64,000 nucleotides of DNA from Escherichia coli (GTDB lineage: Bacteria; Pseudomonadota; Gammaproteobacteria; Enterobacterales; Enterobacteriaceae): the NCBI RefSeq assembly GCF_044647545.1, contig NZ_CP172818.1; one strand, 5' to 3'. The notes beneath the pieces are model-generated. The model saw only the letters and a program-made list of their open reading frames with translations, was not told the DNA's origin and ran no database searches. A program made the translations under genes and the position numbers. Of the stretch, positions 2,955 through 61,580 are shown one piece after another; within the stretch, counting starts at the first letter, position 1, and every line of letters starts with the position of its first letter.

Positions 2955-3716
2955 GTGATGTTGTCTGCTACTCAACCACTTAGCGAAAAATTGCCAGCGC
3001 ATGGCTGTCGTCATGTTGCGATCATTATGGACGGCAATGGTCGCTGGGCAAAAAAGCAAGGGAAGATTCGTGCCTTTGGGCATAAAGCCGGGGCAAAATC
3101 CGTCCGCCGGGCTGTCTCTTTTGCGGCCAACAACGGTATTGAGGCGTTAACTCTGTATGCCTTTAGTAGTGAAAACTGGAACCGACCAGCGCAGGAAGTC
3201 AGTGCGTTAATGGAACTGTTTGTGTGGGCGCTTGATAGCGAAGTAAAGAGTCTGCACCGACATAACGTGCGTCTGCGTATTATTGGCGATACCAGTCGCT
3301 TTAACTCGCGTTTGCAAGAACGTATTCGTAAATCTGAAGCGCTAACAGCCGGGAATACCGGTCTGACGCTGAATATTGCGGCGAACTACGGTGGACGTTG
3401 GGATATAGTCCAGGGAGTCAGGCAACTGGCTGAAAAGGTGCAGCAAGGAAACCTGCAACCAGATCAGATAGATGAAGAGATGCTAAACCAGCATGTCTGT
3501 ATGCATGAACTGGCCCCTGTAGATTTAGTAATTAGGACTGGGGGAGAGCATCGCATTAGTAACTTTTTGCTTTGGCAAATTGCCTATGCCGAACTTTACT
3601 TTACAGATGTTCTCTGGCCCGATTTCGATGAACAAGACTTTGAAGGGGCGTTAAATGCCTTTGCTAATCGAGAGCGTCGTTTCGGCGGCACCGAGCCCGG
3701 TGATGAAACAGCCTGA
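2955..3716 (+). CDS. ispU: undecaprenyl diphosphate synthase (GTG start)
   Basis: 253-aa ORF; HVAIIMDGNGRWA cis-prenyltransferase motif. Confidence 0.95.
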   Translation: MMLSATQPLSEKLPAHGCRHVAIIMDGNGRWAKKQGKIRAFGHKAGAKSVRRAVSFAANNGIEALTLYAFSSENWNRPAQEVSALMELFVWALDSEVKSLHRHNVRLRIIGDTSRFNSRLQERIRKSEALTAGNTGLTLNIAANYGGRWDIVQGVRQLAEKVQQGNLQPDQIDEEMLNQHVCMHELAPVDLVIRTGGEHRISNFLLWQIAYAELYFTDVLWPDFDEQDFEGALNAFANRERRFGGTEPGDETA

Positions 3717-3728
3717 TGGGGGTCGCTT

Positions 3729-4586
3729 TTGCTGAAGTATCGCCTGATATCTGCTTTTGTGTTAATACCCGTCGTCATCGCGGCGTTGTTTCTGTTGCCG
3801 CCGGTGGGGTTCGCCATTGTAACGCTGGTGGTCTGCATGCTGGCAGCGTGGGAATGGGGACAGCTTAGCGGTTTTACCACTCGTGCGCAGCGAGTATGGT
3901 TGGCGGTGTTATGTGGGTTATTGTTGGCGCTGATGCTTTTTCTGTTGCCGGAATATCACCGAAATATTCATCAACCGCTGGTTGAAATCTCACTTTGGGC
4001 TTCGCTGGGTTGGTGGATTGTCGCGCTATTGCTGGTGCTGTTTTACCCAGGTTCCGCAGCAATCTGGCGTAACTCTAAAACATTGCGCATTATTTTTGGC
4101 GTGCTAACCATTGTTCCCTTCTTCTGGGGCATGCTGGCGTTACGGGCCTGGCACTACGACGAGAATCATTACAGTGGCGCAATATGGCTGCTCTATGTCA
4201 TGATCCTGGTATGGGGCGCTGACTCTGGCGCATATATGTTTGGCAAATTGTTTGGTAAACATAAGCTGGCTCCGAAGGTTTCTCCGGGTAAAACCTGGCA
4301 AGGCTTTATCGGTGGACTCGCGACTGCAGCGGTAATCTCATGGGGTTATGGCATGTGGGCGAATCTCGACGTCGCTCCCGTCACCTTACTCATTTGCTCT
4401 ATTGTCGCAGCGTTAGCCTCAGTGCTCGGCGATCTGACCGAAAGTATGTTTAAGCGTGAAGCAGGAATTAAGGACAGCGGTCATTTAATTCCAGGACACG
4501 GTGGTATTTTAGATCGTATTGATAGCCTGACGGCTGCGGTACCGGTCTTTGCTTGCTTGTTGTTACTGGTATTCAGGACGCTTTAA
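3729..4586 (+). CDS. cdsA: CDP-diglyceride synthase (TTG start)
   Basis: 285-aa polytopic membrane ORF; conserved order uppS-cdsA-rseP. Confidence 0.9.
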
Positions 4587-4597
4587 CGGAAGGTAAT

Positions 4598-5950
4598 ATG
4601 CTGAGTTTTCTCTGGGATTTGGCTTCGTTCATCGTTGCACTGGGTGTACTTATCACCGTGCATGAATTTGGTCATTTCTGGGTTGCCCGGCGTTGTGGTG
4701 TTCGCGTTGAGCGTTTCTCAATAGGGTTTGGTAAGGCGCTCTGGCGGCGAACTGATAAGCTCGGCACCGAATATGTTATCGCCCTGATCCCGTTGGGCGG
4801 TTATGTCAAAATGCTGGATGAGCGCGCAGAACCGGTCGTTCCGGAACTCCGCCACCATGCCTTCAATAATAAATCTGTCGGCCAACGAGCGGCGATTATT
4901 GCCGCAGGTCCGGTTGCAAACTTCATTTTTGCTATCTTTGCCTACTGGCTGGTTTTTATTATTGGTGTGCCTGGTGTACGTCCGGTGGTTGGCGAAATAG
5001 CAGCCAATTCGATAGCTGCGGAAGCACAAATTGCACCAGGTACGGAACTAAAAGCCGTAGATGGTATCGAAACGCCTGATTGGGATGCCGTGCGTTTGCA
5101 GTTGGTCGATAAAATTGGCGATGAAAGCACCACCATTACGGTAGCGCCATTTGGCAGCGACCAACGGCGGGATGTAAAGCTCGATTTACGTCACTGGGCG
5201 TTTGAGCCTGATAAAGAAGATCCGGTAACTTCGCTGGGGATTCGTCCTCGTGGGCCGCAAATTGAACCTGTACTGGAAAATGTGCAGCCAAACTCGGCGG
5301 CAAGCAAGGCAGGTTTGCAAGCAGGCGACAGGATCGTTAAAGTCGATGGTCAGCCCTTAACGCAGTGGGTGACCTTTGTGATGCTTGTCCGGGATAACCC
5401 GGGTAAATCCTTAGCGTTAGAAATCGAAAGGCAGGGGAATCCCTTGTCTTTGACATTAATCCCGGAGAGTAAACCGGGTAATGGTAAAGCGATTGGTTTT
5501 GTCGGTATTGAGCCGAAAGTCATTCCTTTGCCAGATGAGTATAAAGTTGTACGCCAGTATGGACCGTTCAACGCCATTGTCGAAGCCACGGACAAAACGT
5601 GGCAGTTGATGAAGCTGACGGTCAGTATGCTGGGAAAATTGATCACCGGTGATGTGAAACTGAACAACCTCAGTGGGCCGATCTCTATCGCCAAGGGGGC
5701 TGGGATGACAGCGGAACTCGGGGTTGTTTATTACCTGCCGTTTCTTGCGCTTATTAGCGTGAACTTAGGGATAATTAACCTGTTTCCGTTGCCCGTACTT
5801 GACGGGGGGCATCTGCTGTTCCTTGCGATCGAAAAGATCAAGGGCGGACCGGTATCCGAGCGGGTTCAAGACTTTTGTTATCGCATTGGCTCGATTCTGC
5901 TGGTGCTGTTAATGGGGCTTGCACTTTTCAATGATTTCTCTCGGTTATGA
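4598..5950 (+). CDS. rseP: regulated intramembrane proteolysis zinc metalloprotease RseP
   Basis: 450 aa from ATG at 4598 (MLSFLWDL...); HEFGHF zinc motif; PDZ region; track ORF starts 15 codons upstream. Confidence 0.92.
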
Positions 5951-22342: not shown

Positions 22343-22888
22343 ATGGCGCTTAAAGCGACGATTTATAAAGCGACGGTTAATGTGGCCGATCTCGACCGCA
22401 ACCAGTTTCTCGATGCCTCTCTGACGCTGGCGCGCCATCCTTCAGAAACCCAGGAGCGCATGATGCTGCGCCTGCTGGCGTGGCTGAAATATGCTGATGA
22501 ACGTCTGCAATTTACCCGAGGTTTGTGTGCCGATGATGAGCCGGAAGCGTGGCTGCGTAACGATCACCTGGGCATTGATTTATGGATTGAACTGGGGCTG
22601 CCGGATGAGCGACGGATTAAGAAAGCCTGCACTCAGGCCGCAGAAGTGGCGCTGTTTGCCTATAATAGTCGGGCGGCGCAAATCTGGTGGCAGCAAAATC
22701 AGAGCAAATGTGCGCAGTTTGCCAATCTTTCCGTCTGGTATCTGGACGATGAACAACTGGCGAAAGTGAGCGCCTTTGCCGATCGTACCATGACGCTGCA
22801 GGCAACGATTCAGGATGGTGTTATCTGGTTATCGGATGATAAGAATAATCTGGAAGTGAACTTAACCGTCTGGCAACAACCTTCATGA
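22343..22888 (+). CDS. yaeQ: conserved protein YaeQ
   Basis: 181-aa [25 protein letters not shown]. Confidence 0.9.
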
Positions 22889-23307
22889 TTGTGATTTCCC
22901 GACATGTTGCTATCCCTGATGGCGAGTTTGAGATCACCGCCATTCGTGCGCAGGGCGCGGGCGGGCAGCATGTTAATAAGACCTCAACGGCTATTCATCT
23001 GCGTTTTGACATTCGGGCGTCCAGCCTGCCAGAGTATTACAAAGAGCGTCTGCTCGCCGCCAGCCATCATTTGATCAGCAGTGACGGAGTGATTGTCATT
23101 AAGGCACAGGAATACCGCAGTCAGGAACTGAACCGCGAAGCGGCGCTGGCCCGGCTGGTGGCAGTGATTAAAGATTTAACAACAGAACAAAAAGCCCGAC
23201 GACCTACGCGGCCCACCCGTGCATCGAAAGAGCGCAGGCTGGCATCGAAAGCACAAAAATCAAGCGTGAAGGCGATGCGCGGCAAAGTGCGCAGCGGTCG
23301 GGAATAA
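22885..23307 (+). CDS. arfB: alternative ribosome-rescue factor / peptidyl-tRNA hydrolase ArfB
   Basis: 140-aa ORF with GGQ motif ([20 protein letters not shown]) and basic C-terminal tail. Confidence 0.93.
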
Positions 23308-39938: not shown

Positions 39939-40610
39939 ATGTCAGGTCTGCCACAGGGCAGACCAACGTTTGGCCCCCTTTAAAAAAAAAAAGACACCAA
40001 TACAACACAACAAAAAAAAAGCGCTGCGCAAAACGTGAGCGCGGTGGTGGCGTATGACTTATCTGCCCAAATGCTGGATGTCGTGGCACAAGCTGCCGAA
40101 GCCGGGCACCTGAAAAATATCGCCACCCGCCAGGGATATGCCGAAAGTCTGCCATTTGCCGATAACGCATTTGATATTGTTATCAGCCGTTATTCTGCCC
40201 ATCACTGGCATGATGTTGGTGCAGCACTGCGAGAAGTGAATAGGATATTGAAACCTGGCGGTAGGCTGATTGTGATGGACGTAATGTCTCCGGGTCACCC
40301 AGTGCGCGACGTCTGGTTACAGACGGTAGAAGCATTACGCGATACCTCTCACGTACGAAACTACGCCAGCGGTGAGTGGTTGACGTTAATCAATGAAGCC
40401 AATCTGATAGTTGATAATTTAATTACAGATAAGTTACCGCTGGAATTTTCTTCATGGGTCGCGAGAATGCGTACGCCAGAAGCGTTAGTAGACGCTATTC
40501 GCATTTACCAACAGAGCGCATCGACAGAGGTGAGAACGTATTTTGCCTTGCAGAATGACGGCTCTTTCACCAGTGATATCATCATGGTAGAAGCACATAA
40601 AGCGGCATAA
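39939..40610 (+). pseudogene. yafE: truncated/interrupted SAM-dependent methyltransferase
   Basis: ATG at 39939 is in frame with the methyltransferase body (GTG 40035 to stop 40610) but separated by a 48-nt A-rich tract with in-frame TAA (39981-39983); body lacks Gly-rich motif I. Confidence 0.7.
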
Positions 40611-47098: not shown

Positions 47099-47162
47099 TG
47101 AAAAATCACCAAGAAAATTAACCAGATCTCGCTCTGAACTCGTAATAAATTCTATGGTTCTG

Positions 47163-47439
47163 CTGATTTAACCGCAGAAAAGTTCGCCACAGCAATCCGA
47201 AACCACTGGCACGTGGAGAATAAGCTGCACTGGCGTCTGGACGTGGTAATGAATGAAGACGACTGCAAAATCAGCGAAAGAGGAAACGCCGCAGAATTAT
47301 TTTCAGGATACGGCGCATCGCTATTAATATTTTGACGAATGATAAGGTATTTAAGGCAGGGTTAAGACGTAAGATGCGAAAAGCAGCTATGGACAGAAAC
47401 TATCTGGCGTCAGTCCTTGCGGGGAGCGGGCTTTCGTAG
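47163..47439 (+). mobile_element. yafF: H-repeat (ISAs1-family) transposase C-terminal fragment, frameshifted
   Basis: Translation ...[40 protein letters not shown]... then, after a frame change, ...[36 protein letters not shown]. Confidence 0.75.
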
Positions 47440-53924: not shown

Positions 53925-54203
53925 TTTACCCAAATAGCGCCGCGTGAGTTCCAGTTCTCTCAAATCGTAAAAGTTTATCGGTAAGTTTGTAAATCAGGAT
54001 CCAGTCCGGTTCGACATGAGCATCGCGATAACCTTTCCATGAACCTTGCAGCGGGTGGTCTTTATAAACAGCTGGAAGCAGTAAAGTATTATTGATAAGA
54101 GCGTCATAAGATATTTCAATTTATTCATATCCTTATGACGCTTTTGTGCAAGTTTTACATCCTTTGAAAATTGTCCCGAGTATTCAATATCCCTTTGAAT
54201 CAT
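53925..54203 (-). pseudogene. yafQ: YafQ mRNA-interferase toxin, frameshifted
   Basis: First 36 codons from ATG at 54203 match YafQ; frame breaks near 54094-54096; the +1 frame continues with ...YKDHPLQGSWKGYRDAHVEPDWILIYKL...FERTGTHAALFG to 53925. Confidence 0.8.
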
Positions 54204-55425: not shown

Positions 55426-57182
55426 GCAGGGATCTCCCCCACAACACTCAACGCCCCCATAATCTTCAACTCCAGCTCGTCCGGCACTTCGTTATACGAC
55501 AGCACATGCAGCCCCGGCGCAAACAATCTCGCATAGCGCGCCAGCAAAGGGCGCAACTGCGGTGGCACCAGCAGCACAGGGTCTTTCCCCGCCGCTTTCA
55601 TCTGCTCCTTCACCTGCGGCATCGTACTCTGGAACTGGTTGAGCATATTCGGGTCTACCGGCACGCTGTCGAGCATCACTTTGCCGGCCTGTTGCGCCTG
55701 ATTCACCACGTTGGTCAGCAGATTTTCCAGCTCATTATTCAGCGTATACACCGTCAGCTCCTGCTTGCGAACGAACGGATGGGTAATGCTGCGCCGCAGC
55801 GCCAGGCGCACATCTGCCGCCAGCAGAATATGATCTTTGGTCACCGCACTACTGGCGACCAGCACGGTGGCGATGGTGACGATATCGCGCAGGGAAACGC
55901 CTTCAGTCAGCAGCGCCCGGTACACTTTCAGCAACTGGCTGTAATTCAGCGCCGCGCTCAAATCCTCCGCCAGTCGCGGTGCCATCGACGACAGGCGGTT
56001 ATGCAACTGCGTAATATCGTCATAGTTAAATAAATCAGGAATATAGCTGCGCACAATCTTATTCACATGCGTGGCAATTACGCTGGCGCTGTCGATCACC
56101 TGATACCCCATATTCAGCGCCTTCGCTTTCTGCGCAGGCTGAATCCAGGTGACCGGCATCCCATATGCCGGGTCATTCCCCAGTACGCCGTCAATCTCGC
56201 CGTAGGTTTCGCTGGAGGGCAGGGCCATCAGTTTATCCGCCGGAATATCCGCTTCATCAGCCTTAATGCCGTTGATGAAAATGGCGTACTGGCTGGGCTT
56301 GAGACGGAAGTTTTCCCGAATACGGATCTCCGGCAGCAGCACGCCGTTACCGTCGGATATCACCTGCCGCACGCCGCGAATCCGCTGGGTGAGCGGGTTC
56401 CCCTGCGCTTTGTCCACCAGCGCCACCAGCTTGTAGCCGAGGCTTAAGCTGATGGGCTCGATCAGCGGAATGGTTTCCCAACTGACCTGTTGCTCGCTGG
56501 TTTCGGTGATGGTTCGGGTCAGCGTTTCGAGGCTTTTCTCCTCCGCCTCCGCCGCCTGCGGGCGTTTGCTCATCCGCCAGCCGGTAAAGCCAAGCAGGGC
56601 GCTGAACAGCAAAAATGGCAGATGCGGCATCCCCGGCACCACCGCCAGCACAAACATGATCCCGGTGGCGGTGTAGAGCACCGACGGACTTGCCAGCAGC
56701 TGGTGGCGCACGTCATGGGCGATATCGCCGTTGTCGCTGACGCGGGTGACGATAATTGCCGCCGCGGTGGAGAGCAGCAGGGACGGGATCTGCGCCACCA
56801 GCCCGTCGCCGATAGTCATCAGCACATATTGCTGGAAGGCGGCGTCGGCGCTCAGGTTGTATTTGAAGATCCCGATACAGACGCCGCCGATCAGGTTGAT
56901 CGCCAGAATCATCATCCCGGCGATGGCATCGCCGCGCACAAACTTCGATGCCCCGTCCATTGCGCCGTAGAAATCGGCCTCGCTGGCAACATCTTTACGC
57001 CGGGTTTGTGCCTGCGCCTGGTTGATCAATCCGGCGTTAAGATCGGCGTCAATCGCCATCTGTTTACCGGGCATCGCGTCCAGGGTAAAGCGGGCAGAAA
57101 CCTCGGAAATACGCTCGGCCCCTTTGGTGACGACGATAAAGTTGATTGTCAACAGCGTCAGTAAATCCGAGCGTGAAAGCAT
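55377..57182 (-). pseudogene. lfhA: FlhA-like flagellar export protein remnant (Flag-2 cluster), 5'-truncated
   Basis: About 600-aa ORF with FlhA-family similarity (…FVRGDAIAG…, C-terminal cytoplasmic domain) lacking the N-terminal TM region and a credible start. Confidence 0.8.
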
Positions 57183-60246: not shown

Positions 60247-60424
60247 ATCCAGCTTGCAATGAAAATAACGCCCGCCTAGTATGTGTGCGTTTTCTTATTC
60301 CACAAACTGCAAGGAGGTAAATCATGACAAATCCTTTATCAATGACTCTTTGCAGACCTTTCCAGGATTAATTCTTTTTTTCTTGCCCTGGATTCGTCTG
60401 CCATTTCCTGATTTTTATTCATAA

Positions 60425-60691
60425 ATGGAATGGTACATGGGCAAATATATTCGTCCCTTATCCGATGCGGTATTTACCATCGCATCTGATGACCTGTGGA
60501 TCGAGAGTTTAGCGATCCAACAATTACACACCACGGCAAATTTACCCAACATGCAACGCGTAGTAGGGATGCCAGATTTACATCCCGGACGCGGCTATCC
60601 GATTGGCGCAGCGTTCTTCTCCGTAGGCCGTTTTTACCCGGCAAGACGTCGCGGTAACGGTGCTGGAAACAGAAACGGGTCGCTACTCTGA
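60425..60691 (+). pseudogene. ykfJ: RtcB-like RNA ligase N-terminal fragment
   Basis: 88-aa ORF with RtcB-type motif GMPDLHPGRGYPIGAAF, then terminates; overlaps prfH. Confidence 0.7.
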
Positions 60692-61160
60692 CACACTGCG
60701 TTCGGCGCTGATTTCTCTGGATGGCGATAACGCATGGGCTCTAAGCGAAAGCTGGTGTGGCACTATCCAGTGGATTTGTCCGAGTCCGTATCGGCCTCAT
60801 CATGGGCGCAAAAACTGGTTTCTGGGCATTGGGCGTTTTACCGCTGATGAGCAGGAACAATCCGACGCGATCCGTTATGAGACGCTGCGTTCGTCGGGGC
60901 CGGGCGGTCAACATGTCAATAAAACCGACTCGGCGGTACGCGCCACGCATCTGGCATCCGGTATTAGCGTGAAGGTTCAGTCAGAGCGCAGTCAGCATGC
61001 TAACAAACGGCTGGCGCGATTACTGATTGCCTGGAAGCTGGAACAACAGCAACAGGAAAATAGCGCGGCGCTGAAATCGCAGCGGCGAATGTTCCATCAT
61101 CAAATTGAACGTGGCAATCCGCGACGGATATTTACCGGGATGGCTTTTGTTGCTGTGTAA
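60660..61160 (+). CDS. prfH: peptide chain release factor homolog RF-H (likely N-terminally truncated)
   Basis: 166-aa ORF with GGQ motif ([20 protein letters not shown]). Confidence 0.85.
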
Positions 61161-61580
61161 TTGAAGAATGAAACTCCCGCCGTTTTCTATATGAAAGCGC
61201 GCGCAAAACGAAAGAATCTCATTTTATCTCTCTTCCCTTTTTTTGATAAATCTTTCTTGTAGAACTTCTGTTGCTTCATCGCGCCGGTTTTTGGCTTAGT
61301 TTGGCCATTCGCCCGTTTTTGATCTTTTTGGCGTCGGGTGGTAACGCCAAACTCACTTTTTCCTCTTAGGCATAATATGGTTTGTCCGCCGGGGGGCTAG
61401 TTTTGGGCGGAAAAGAGAAAAACCCTTTCCAAATTGTTTTTCGACTGCGATCTGGGTCTTTCGGTAACACTTTCCTACATAGGTATTTTTTTTTTATTTT
61501 TAAAAAAAAAAAAAATCAAAAAAAGATAGCCATTGGCTTCAAACAGAAGTCCACGCCCGCAGGCGTGGACATTATCGTAA

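Follow-up and report, generated by a model that had tools for sequence, protein, structure and literature searches.

A probable null rtcB2-prfH remnant of the K-12 type, left by a single 1,027-bp deletion and likely acquired from an assembly template

The ykfJ-prfH pair of an Escherichia coli chromosomal sequence (contig NZ_CP172818.1; the 64,000 nucleotides analysed here are called the window) is probably a null remnant of the rtcB2-prfH operon, left by one 1,027-bp deletion, that represents the K-12-type allele and is likely to have reached the window from an assembly template. When ribosomes are cut at A1493/G1494, intact PrfH frees their peptides and the 16S rRNA is afterwards religated by RtcB2 (Tian et al. 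2022, PMC9304027); the cut is made by colicin E3-type toxins, and PrfH enters the ribosomal A site (PMC9304027; cryo-EM structure 7SA4). The operon shields strain ATCC 25922 from colicin E3, whereas the truncated operon of BW25113 is without that function and its knockouts gave no colicin E3 phenotype (Maviza et al. 2022, PMC9223846). An earlier note on this DNA had assigned intact RtcB2-PrfH pairs to ribosome repair or rescue, which both of these studies bear out.

A deletion of ~1,000 nt was reported in K-12, W3110, Sakai and EDL933, where both genes were called pseudogenes (Baranov et al. 2006, PMC1586002), and in K-12-like genomes this structure carries a RefSeq annotation as two partial pseudogenes. 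The window allele is this K-12 ykfJ/prfH pseudogene allele, in the literature since 2006. In the mechanism proposed here, deletion between two imperfect 9-bp direct repeats left both ends of an operon whose PrfH would otherwise enter the A site of colicin E3-cut ribosomes and free the nascent peptide, with RtcB2 religating the 16S rRNA; neither truncated product (RtcB2 1-69 plus a tail; PrfH without residues 1-30) would be able to work, which would make the allele null. The loss of function of the window copy is one that we infer from the K-12 literature.

The deletion and its two stumps

The pair comprises the following features, with the two repeats of the intact reference locus, FDAARGOS_497 (L001), given last.

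60425-60691, + strand: ykfJ open reading frame (ORF), 88 aa, ATG start, contains GMPDLHPGRGYPIGAAF; made up of RtcB2 codons 1-69, preceded by 4 extra codons and followed by a frameshifted tail of 15 codons
60437-60643, + strand: RtcB2 codons 1-69, 100% identical to L001 3188-3394
60635-60643, + strand: deletion junction, hybrid 9-bp repeat TACCCGGCA
60636-61160, + strand: prfH remnant, PrfH codons 31-204, 100% identical to L001 4422-4938
60644-60691, + strand: out-of-frame ykfJ tail, prfH DNA translated in the wrong frame
60660-61160, + strand: prfH ORF, 166 aa, GTG start; PrfH residues 39-204
60903-60911, + strand: GGQ peptidyl-tRNA hydrolysis motif, PrfH G120-G121-Q122, as read from the sequence
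L001 3386-3394: intact-locus repeat 1, TACCCGGCA, rtcB codons 67-69 (Y67-P68-A69)
L001 4413-4421: intact-locus repeat 2, TACCCGACA, prfH codons 30-33

In FDAARGOS_497 the two genes are complete, with overlapping stop and start codons (rtcB 3188-4327, 379 aa; prfH 4324-4938, 204 aa). Alignment to a full-length rtcB2-prfH locus had been proposed in the earlier note; carried out with FDAARGOS_497, it reduces the lesion to a single 1,027-bp gap with 100% identity on either side. The gap is flanked by the imperfect direct repeats TACCCGGCA and TACCCGACA, whose copies lie 1,027 bp apart in the intact locus, and a single hybrid copy is left at 60635-60643. As 1,027 is not divisible by 3, the rtcB frame enters prfH DNA out of frame for 15 codons, and the 32-nt overlap of the two ORFs (60660-60691) is an artefact of that frameshift. 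Both ORFs and their overlap are present as first described. The deletion removed RtcB2 residues 70-379, all catalytic residues among them, and PrfH residues 1-30 (1-38 if counted from the first usable GTG, codon 39). Both stumps are thus the product of one deletion. The description of the pair as a decayed fossil goes too far: the stumps are 100% identical to intact alleles and nothing has decayed beyond the deletion.

The ykfJ product is an N-terminal RtcB fragment, as had been proposed: it matches NF007153 (release-factor-H-coupled RtcB; E=7.6e-31, model positions 1-69 of 379) and TIGR03073 (E=6.1e-29), with its residues 5-73 aligned end to end to positions 1-69 of the PrfH-coupled RtcB model. 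The annotated rtcB start in intact strains is MGKYIRPL. The fragment scores 107.4 bits against a cut-off of 407 for full-length RtcB2 (NF007153 / TIGR03073 family), and its Pfam RtcB score of 23.3 bits lies under the gathering score of 27. It is without the catalytic apparatus, as the RtcB sequence stops after A69 and the metal-binding motif GNDIGCG starts at residue 72 of the intact protein; D74 and C77, which are metal ligands, and the nucleophile His294 are lost, H294 of EcRtcB2 being the active-site residue mutated in PMC9304027. It could be argued that ykfJ is a complete small protein that is unrelated to RtcB and only overlaps prfH, given its continuous 88-codon ORF with an ATG start and its listing as a hypothetical protein in older annotations. 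However, the residues that match the RtcB model agree at every position with the start of the 379-aa protein of intact strains, and the final 15 residues come from prfH DNA translated in the wrong frame. The model match and the identity refute this alternative, to which practically no credence can be given.

By its sequence, the 166-aa ORF is a fragment of the prfH gene by descent. It matches TIGR03072 (release_prfH) at E=5.1e-81, with 271 bits against a cut-off of 166.65 over model positions 38-200 of 200, and Pfam RF-1 at E=9e-25. The GGQ peptidyl-tRNA hydrolase domain (residues 108-161) is complete and includes Q122, the catalytic PrfH residue mutated in PMC9304027, so that the earlier description of prfH as truncated to 166 aa with its GGQ retained was correct. 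The start codon and the translational coupling to rtcB2 through the overlapping ATGA are gone: the stop and start codons overlap by 1-4 nt in intact loci, and in the window that junction falls inside the deleted 1,027 bp. No AGGAGG-like (Shine-Dalgarno) motif was found within 15 nt before the prfH GTG at 60660.

The domain of PrfH that recognises rRNA (residues 2-98 and 180-204; PMC9304027) is incomplete in the stump, with TIGR03072 positions 1-37 unmatched and residues 1-30 deleted. The missing residues are the most conserved N-terminal part of that domain, and contain a MILLQLS..GP.EC..AV block that is invariant across E. coli, Klebsiella-plasmid and Ralstonia PrfH. The stump does not pass as a class I release factor (RF1/RF2), scoring 76-90 bits on the prfB and prfA models against cut-offs of 370-423. 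Intact PrfH (204 aa, PDB 7SA4) aligns only to RF2 residues ~115-300, and the absence of release-factor domain 1 and of a stop-codon reader (PxT / SPF) is therefore a property of the family and not of this copy; domain 1 is natively absent from PrfH (PMC1586002). The earlier claim that prfH lacks an N-terminal codon-recognition region consequently holds for the loss of the N-terminus, but the part lost is 30-38 residues of the rRNA-recognition domain and includes no stop-codon reader. With residues 1-30 deleted, prfH does not encode all release-factor domains.

Provenance and frequency of the deletion allele

Over its first 39.4 kb the window is colinear with, and 99.977% identical to, FDAARGOS_497, which resembles sequence type 648 (ST648), and it is 99.9-100% identical over the rest. 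The operon is intact in 82/82 genomes that match the segment at >=99% identity. Only five structural differences separate the window from FDAARGOS_497 in 64 kb, and all five fall where K-12 is without the FDAARGOS_497 sequence.

Difference 1, 39960-40022: garbled patch (A11, A9), ~170 bp lost
Difference 2, 47161-47421: 23.5-kb type VI secretion island lost, with a 260-bp ISAs1 remnant instead
Difference 3, ~55427-55447: 88 bp of FDAARGOS_497 cut to a few odd bases; K-12 has a ~900-bp rayT (REP-associated transposase) segment
Difference 4, junction at 60635-60643: the rtcB-prfH deletion
Difference 5, 61165-61523: garbled homopolymer-rich patch of ~360 bp (T10, A14)

Garbled, homopolymer-rich patches are found at three of the sites. 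The first (39960-40022) replaces yafD-yafE intergenic DNA and the 5' end of a methyltransferase gene of FDAARGOS_497, and K-12 is also without ~150 bp there. The ykfM-ISAs1 remnant-yafV junction occurs in only 373 of the 5,426 complete E. coli genomes on which all population counts are based, and those listed are K-12-type; the remnant in the window shares its junctions with K-12, but its internal sequence is only ~94% identical to that of K-12, with small indels, a degree of likeness that reads from other ISAs1 copies would give. At 61165-61523, FDAARGOS_497 has 877 bp (a YdjM-family metal-dependent hydrolase gene and a 93-aa ORF) and K-12 has 56 bp; the patch matches no complete E. coli genome and looks like consensus noise at a structural difference. 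When 61237-61523 was treated as a decimated YdjM-family gene, a longest-common-subsequence test gave weak support (272 vs 265±2.2), and the same test gave none for 39960-40022.

The combination of ST648-type flanks with the deletion was absent from the complete genomes. Exact-protein look-ups of the 88-aa and 166-aa products returned only deletion loci of the K-12 type and intact loci at which a short gene had been called, a 69-mer of the window allele had no match in the JGI metagenomes, and none of 6 metagenome contigs with the general junction shows the window haplotype. It is very unlikely that five K-12-shaped changes arose naturally in a sequence which differs from an intact relative by only four single-nucleotide polymorphisms (SNPs) over 39 kb, and the simplest reading is a template artefact. 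It is likely that the window deletion was inherited from a K-12-type template in a reference-guided, chimeric or mis-polished assembly; if so, the operon of the real strain is probably intact.

The deletion itself is common. The deleted internal kilobase is present in 2,677-2,715 of the genomes and coverage of the junction 54-mer reaches >=80% in at least 1,931-2,688; these are rough numbers, as the 54-mer queries for G-type and A-type junctions each retrieved both, the variable base being off-centre. The split between intact and deleted alleles is roughly even, at about 50:50. The same junction is found base for base in K-12-like genomes, O157:H7 Sakai and others. A general junction 23-mer was absent from all GTDB species representatives, a set to which the window does not belong, and no representative of another species carried the deletion.

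Differences among the prfH stumps of deletion alleles are nearly all synonymous, with a ratio of non-synonymous to synonymous differences (pN/pS) of 0.0-0.17 and pS up to ~0.16, as in intact alleles (loci L002, L004, L007 and L013-L017 compared with L001, L003, L008 and L009 over the equivalent of 60645-61160). The low pN/pS implies that this variation arose while the gene was under selection. Together with the variants of the junction described below, the synonymous variation suggests either recurrent deletion or frequent recombination with intact alleles that refreshes the flanks. Many deletion alleles carry further damage in prfH, in the form of frameshifts or a second deletion of ~165 bp (L005, L006, L012, L018, L024-L026 and L028-L031; equivalent to 60829-60995), which shows ongoing decay in some deletion lineages.

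Several observations weigh against a null K-12-type allele taken from a template. The artefact is read solely from the pattern of differences. The window is without two K-12-specific insertions, rayT and a 126-bp ERIC-like element, and has ~360 garbled bp where K-12 has 56, so that a simple 'K-12 consensus' does not account for every detail. Loss of function has been seen by experiment for colicin E3 in BW25113 only. Natural deletion alleles have three junction variants (TACCCGGCA, TACCCGACA and TATCCGGCA) on several flanking haplotypes and, given this variety, natural recurrence on the ST648-type haplotype is not impossible.

The window could then hold a genuine, recent and independent deletion in an ST648-like strain, produced by slippage or microhomology between the 9-bp repeats at a recurrent hot spot. 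Its flanks are identical to intact alleles right up to the junction, and the SNPs that set them apart from K-12-type alleles come as close as 7 nt upstream of the junction repeat and 37 nt downstream of it; because the window differs at SNPs so near the junction, the allele was not imported from a K-12-like donor. The three natural junction variants on different haplotypes point the same way, and the pN/pS and pS values of the stumps would fit several young deletions. However, independent deletion would leave the four other differences from 99.98%-identical relatives, each matching the K-12 structure, and the three garbled patches to be explained, and the haplotype was found with the deletion neither in the genomes and the metagenome contigs nor by the two exact-protein look-ups. 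A 9-bp imperfect repeat 1 kb apart is moreover a weak substrate for recurrence, and recombination with intact alleles could equally produce the diversity of haplotypes. An independent deletion is therefore unlikely, and the template artefact is preferred.

The upstream leader and its consequences for the stumps

The following elements precede ykfJ in the window.

60254-60282, + strand: promoter-like element TTGCAA-N17-TAGTAT, read from the sequence and with a putative promoter function
60311-60317, + strand: Shine-Dalgarno AAGGAGG
60324-60371, + strand: leader small ORF (sORF) of 15 codons, MTNPLSMTLCRPFQD followed by a stop
60372-60436, + strand: rest of the 5' leader, with a conserved GCCUGCCA block, a U-rich tract and the rtcB2 ribosome-binding region

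The ~80-nt stretch of the promoter-like element and leader has no SNP in 8 E. coli haplotypes that differ by 4-5% elsewhere, and Kangiella, Solimonas, Ralstonia and Pseudomonas-type loci have TTGCA-N17-TAnnAT at an equal distance before their leader sORF. A consensus promoter scan between yafP and ykfJ found nothing, the promoter-like element scoring 8 of 12, below the threshold. A GC-rich hairpin-like stretch at 60268-60300 had been considered as a yafP terminator and was dropped, as the cross-genus comparison places it in the conserved promoter-like element.

An sORF of 13-15 codons is found at the same place in 13/15 proteobacterial (Gamma-/Beta-) rtcB2-prfH loci, most with an [LP]C[RG] motif; the Pseudomonas-type form is M..LITLCRSRLA. 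Massilia and Methylobacterium also have an upstream sORF with a strong Shine-Dalgarno sequence, but of different length and without the motif. The conserved leader blocks are able to pair with each other (alignment and RNAalifold helices): 91% of the cells in the leader alignment are paired, with 8 compensatory pairs vs 3.8±1.2 in shuffles. No Rfam family covers the leader at E≤1.

In Pseudomonas aeruginosa, the leader peptide PA5471.1 turns on armZ (PA5471, RtcB-like) and PA5470 (prfH) on ribosome stalling, by attenuation (PMC12057347, PMC13041342). The window passes the sequence test for a leader of this type, having a short sORF with a strong Shine-Dalgarno sequence ~110-200 nt before an RtcB-like gene and pairing segments downstream. 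The E. coli leader corresponds to the PA5471.1 attenuator, and by analogy may act by attenuation; homology to PA5471.1 was judged from related Pseudomonas loci and the literature, not from the PAO1 sequence itself. The idea that the leader is of a new kind was dropped, since the PA5471.1 literature covers it. The searchable literature, including a full-text search for the peptide sequences, yielded neither the E. coli sORF nor an account of its breadth in the family.

Whether the stumps are transcribed had been raised in the earlier note. According to Morita 2006, cited in a 2012 review (PMC3516279), 4-azaleucine can induce K-12 ykfJ, and the upstream element and leader are intact in the window. 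Because the promoter-like element and stalling leader are intact, the stumps are probably still transcribed under translation stress. The same observations would suit a remnant that is alive, in which the 166-aa PrfH or the 88-aa YkfJ is produced under translation stress and, through a residual or new function, places the stumps under purifying selection; the complete GGQ domain is consistent with this, as are the full-length prfH stumps of K-12, 1409 and Sakai, which differ mostly at synonymous sites. However, the prfH GTG is without a Shine-Dalgarno sequence and is no longer coupled to rtcB2. The loss of residues 1-30 takes away the best-conserved stretch of the domain with which PrfH docks on the damaged decoding centre (PMC9304027), and according to Baranov et al. 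(PMC1586002) this domain would not fold. The extra frameshifts and second prfH deletion of many deletion alleles, the substitutions beside GGQ in the Sakai stump and the BW25113 knockouts without a colicin E3 phenotype (PMC9223846) also speak against it, and a living remnant is very improbable.

A wider view would combine several of these elements: recurrent deletion at the 9-bp microhomology, in place of one ancient accident, would maintain presence and absence of colicin E3 defence as a balanced polymorphism at ~50%, the window would be a fresh and independent ST648-type case, and damage to ribosomes would continue to turn on the stumps as the stalling-sensitive leader is retained. This is unlikely, and the null remnant from a K-12-type template is retained as the preferred explanation.

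Significance and comparison with known systems

The truncation of ykfJ and prfH in itself adds little to what was published in 2006 and to the loss of colicin E3 function shown in 2022. Useful by-products are the precise ends of the deletion and the way it arose (1,027 bp lost, out of frame, at a 9-bp imperfect repeat), as well as the allele frequency of ~50:50. The window also serves as a warning: its structure is a mosaic that combines ST648-type sequence with a K-12-type frame, and presence or absence calls made from it, the present one included, may be wrong for the real strain. Finally, two literatures are joined, as the colicin E3 repair operon of E. coli has the same leader-peptide sensor as armZ-PA5470, which controls MexXY aminoglycoside resistance in P. 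aeruginosa. The sensor shared by the two operons suggests, by analogy, that the whole rtcB2-prfH family may be induced by ribosome stalling.

A PrfH-based search for related loci was dominated by RF1/RF2 through the GGQ pattern, and an RtcB neighbour was present in 11/80 loci. Conjugative IncC resistance plasmids carry a divergent rtcB2-prfH pair beside sul1, as seen on the Klebsiella pneumoniae plasmid NZ_CP086440.1 (L033, 1501-3212); the pair is 54% identical, has a leader sORF of its own and encodes a C-terminally shorter PrfH of 182 aa. This arrangement is also found on the E. coli plasmid NZ_MG450360.1. The 24-kb Shigella flexneri 'plasmid' NZ_CP012736.1 (L032) reads yafO-yafP-leader-rtcB-...-pepD, i.e., the chromosomal context, and is probably a misassigned chromosomal fragment; its rtcB gave a match of only 76.6% (tblastn). 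Elsewhere in the window, the dinJ-yafQ pair has a shortened toxin gene, yafQ (53994-54203, a 69-aa ORF), like the frameshifted yafQ annotated in FDAARGOS_497.

The closest known counterpart is the K-12 pair ykfJ (b0235) and prfH (b0236). The order dinB-yafNOP-ykfJ-prfH-pepD and the 88-aa and 166-aa ORFs are alike (the window reads dinB-yafN-yafO-yafP-ykfJ-prfH-pepD-gpt), and the junction, TACCCGGCA followed directly by AGACG, is identical to the base. In contrast, nucleotide identity to the window is ~95% (35 mismatches in 759 bp), the window flanks being of the ST648-type haplotype, and one residue of the YkfJ tail differs (S versus P). In K-12 and Sakai, moreover, the 126-bp ERIC-like insertion separates the leader from the start of ykfJ (L002 3170-3298 and L007; equivalent to window 60418-60421), which the window and intact strains are without. 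A shorter form of this repeat precedes ykfJ in CFSAN018748 and ET350.

Compared with the intact module of ATCC 25922 and FDAARGOS_497, the window has the same promoter-like element and leader and stumps that are 100% identical to the FDAARGOS_497 genes, but is missing 1,027 bp (RtcB2 70-379, PrfH 1-30) and the coupling ATGA.

ArfB (YaeJ) is likewise a small GGQ protein derived from a release factor and without codon-recognition domains, and its model NF006718 gave a weak match to the prfH stump (E=1.7e-8; 34 bits, vs 271 on the PrfH model). The two differ in what they sense: the C-terminal tail of ArfB senses an empty mRNA channel, whereas PrfH reads cut 16S rRNA through an RF2-like domain 2/4. 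An intact arfB (140 aa, GGQ), the other small ribosome rescue factor of release-factor origin, is present at 22885-23307 of the window.

PA5471.1-armZ-PA5470 of P. aeruginosa is an operon of the same type, and the position of the sORF and the pairing blocks recur in E. coli and 12 other loci, most of them with the [LP]C[RG] motif. PA5471.1 has 13 codons, whereas the E. coli leader has 15 and is without the variable hairpin after the sORF, and the anti-MexZ role of ArmZ is specific to Pseudomonas.

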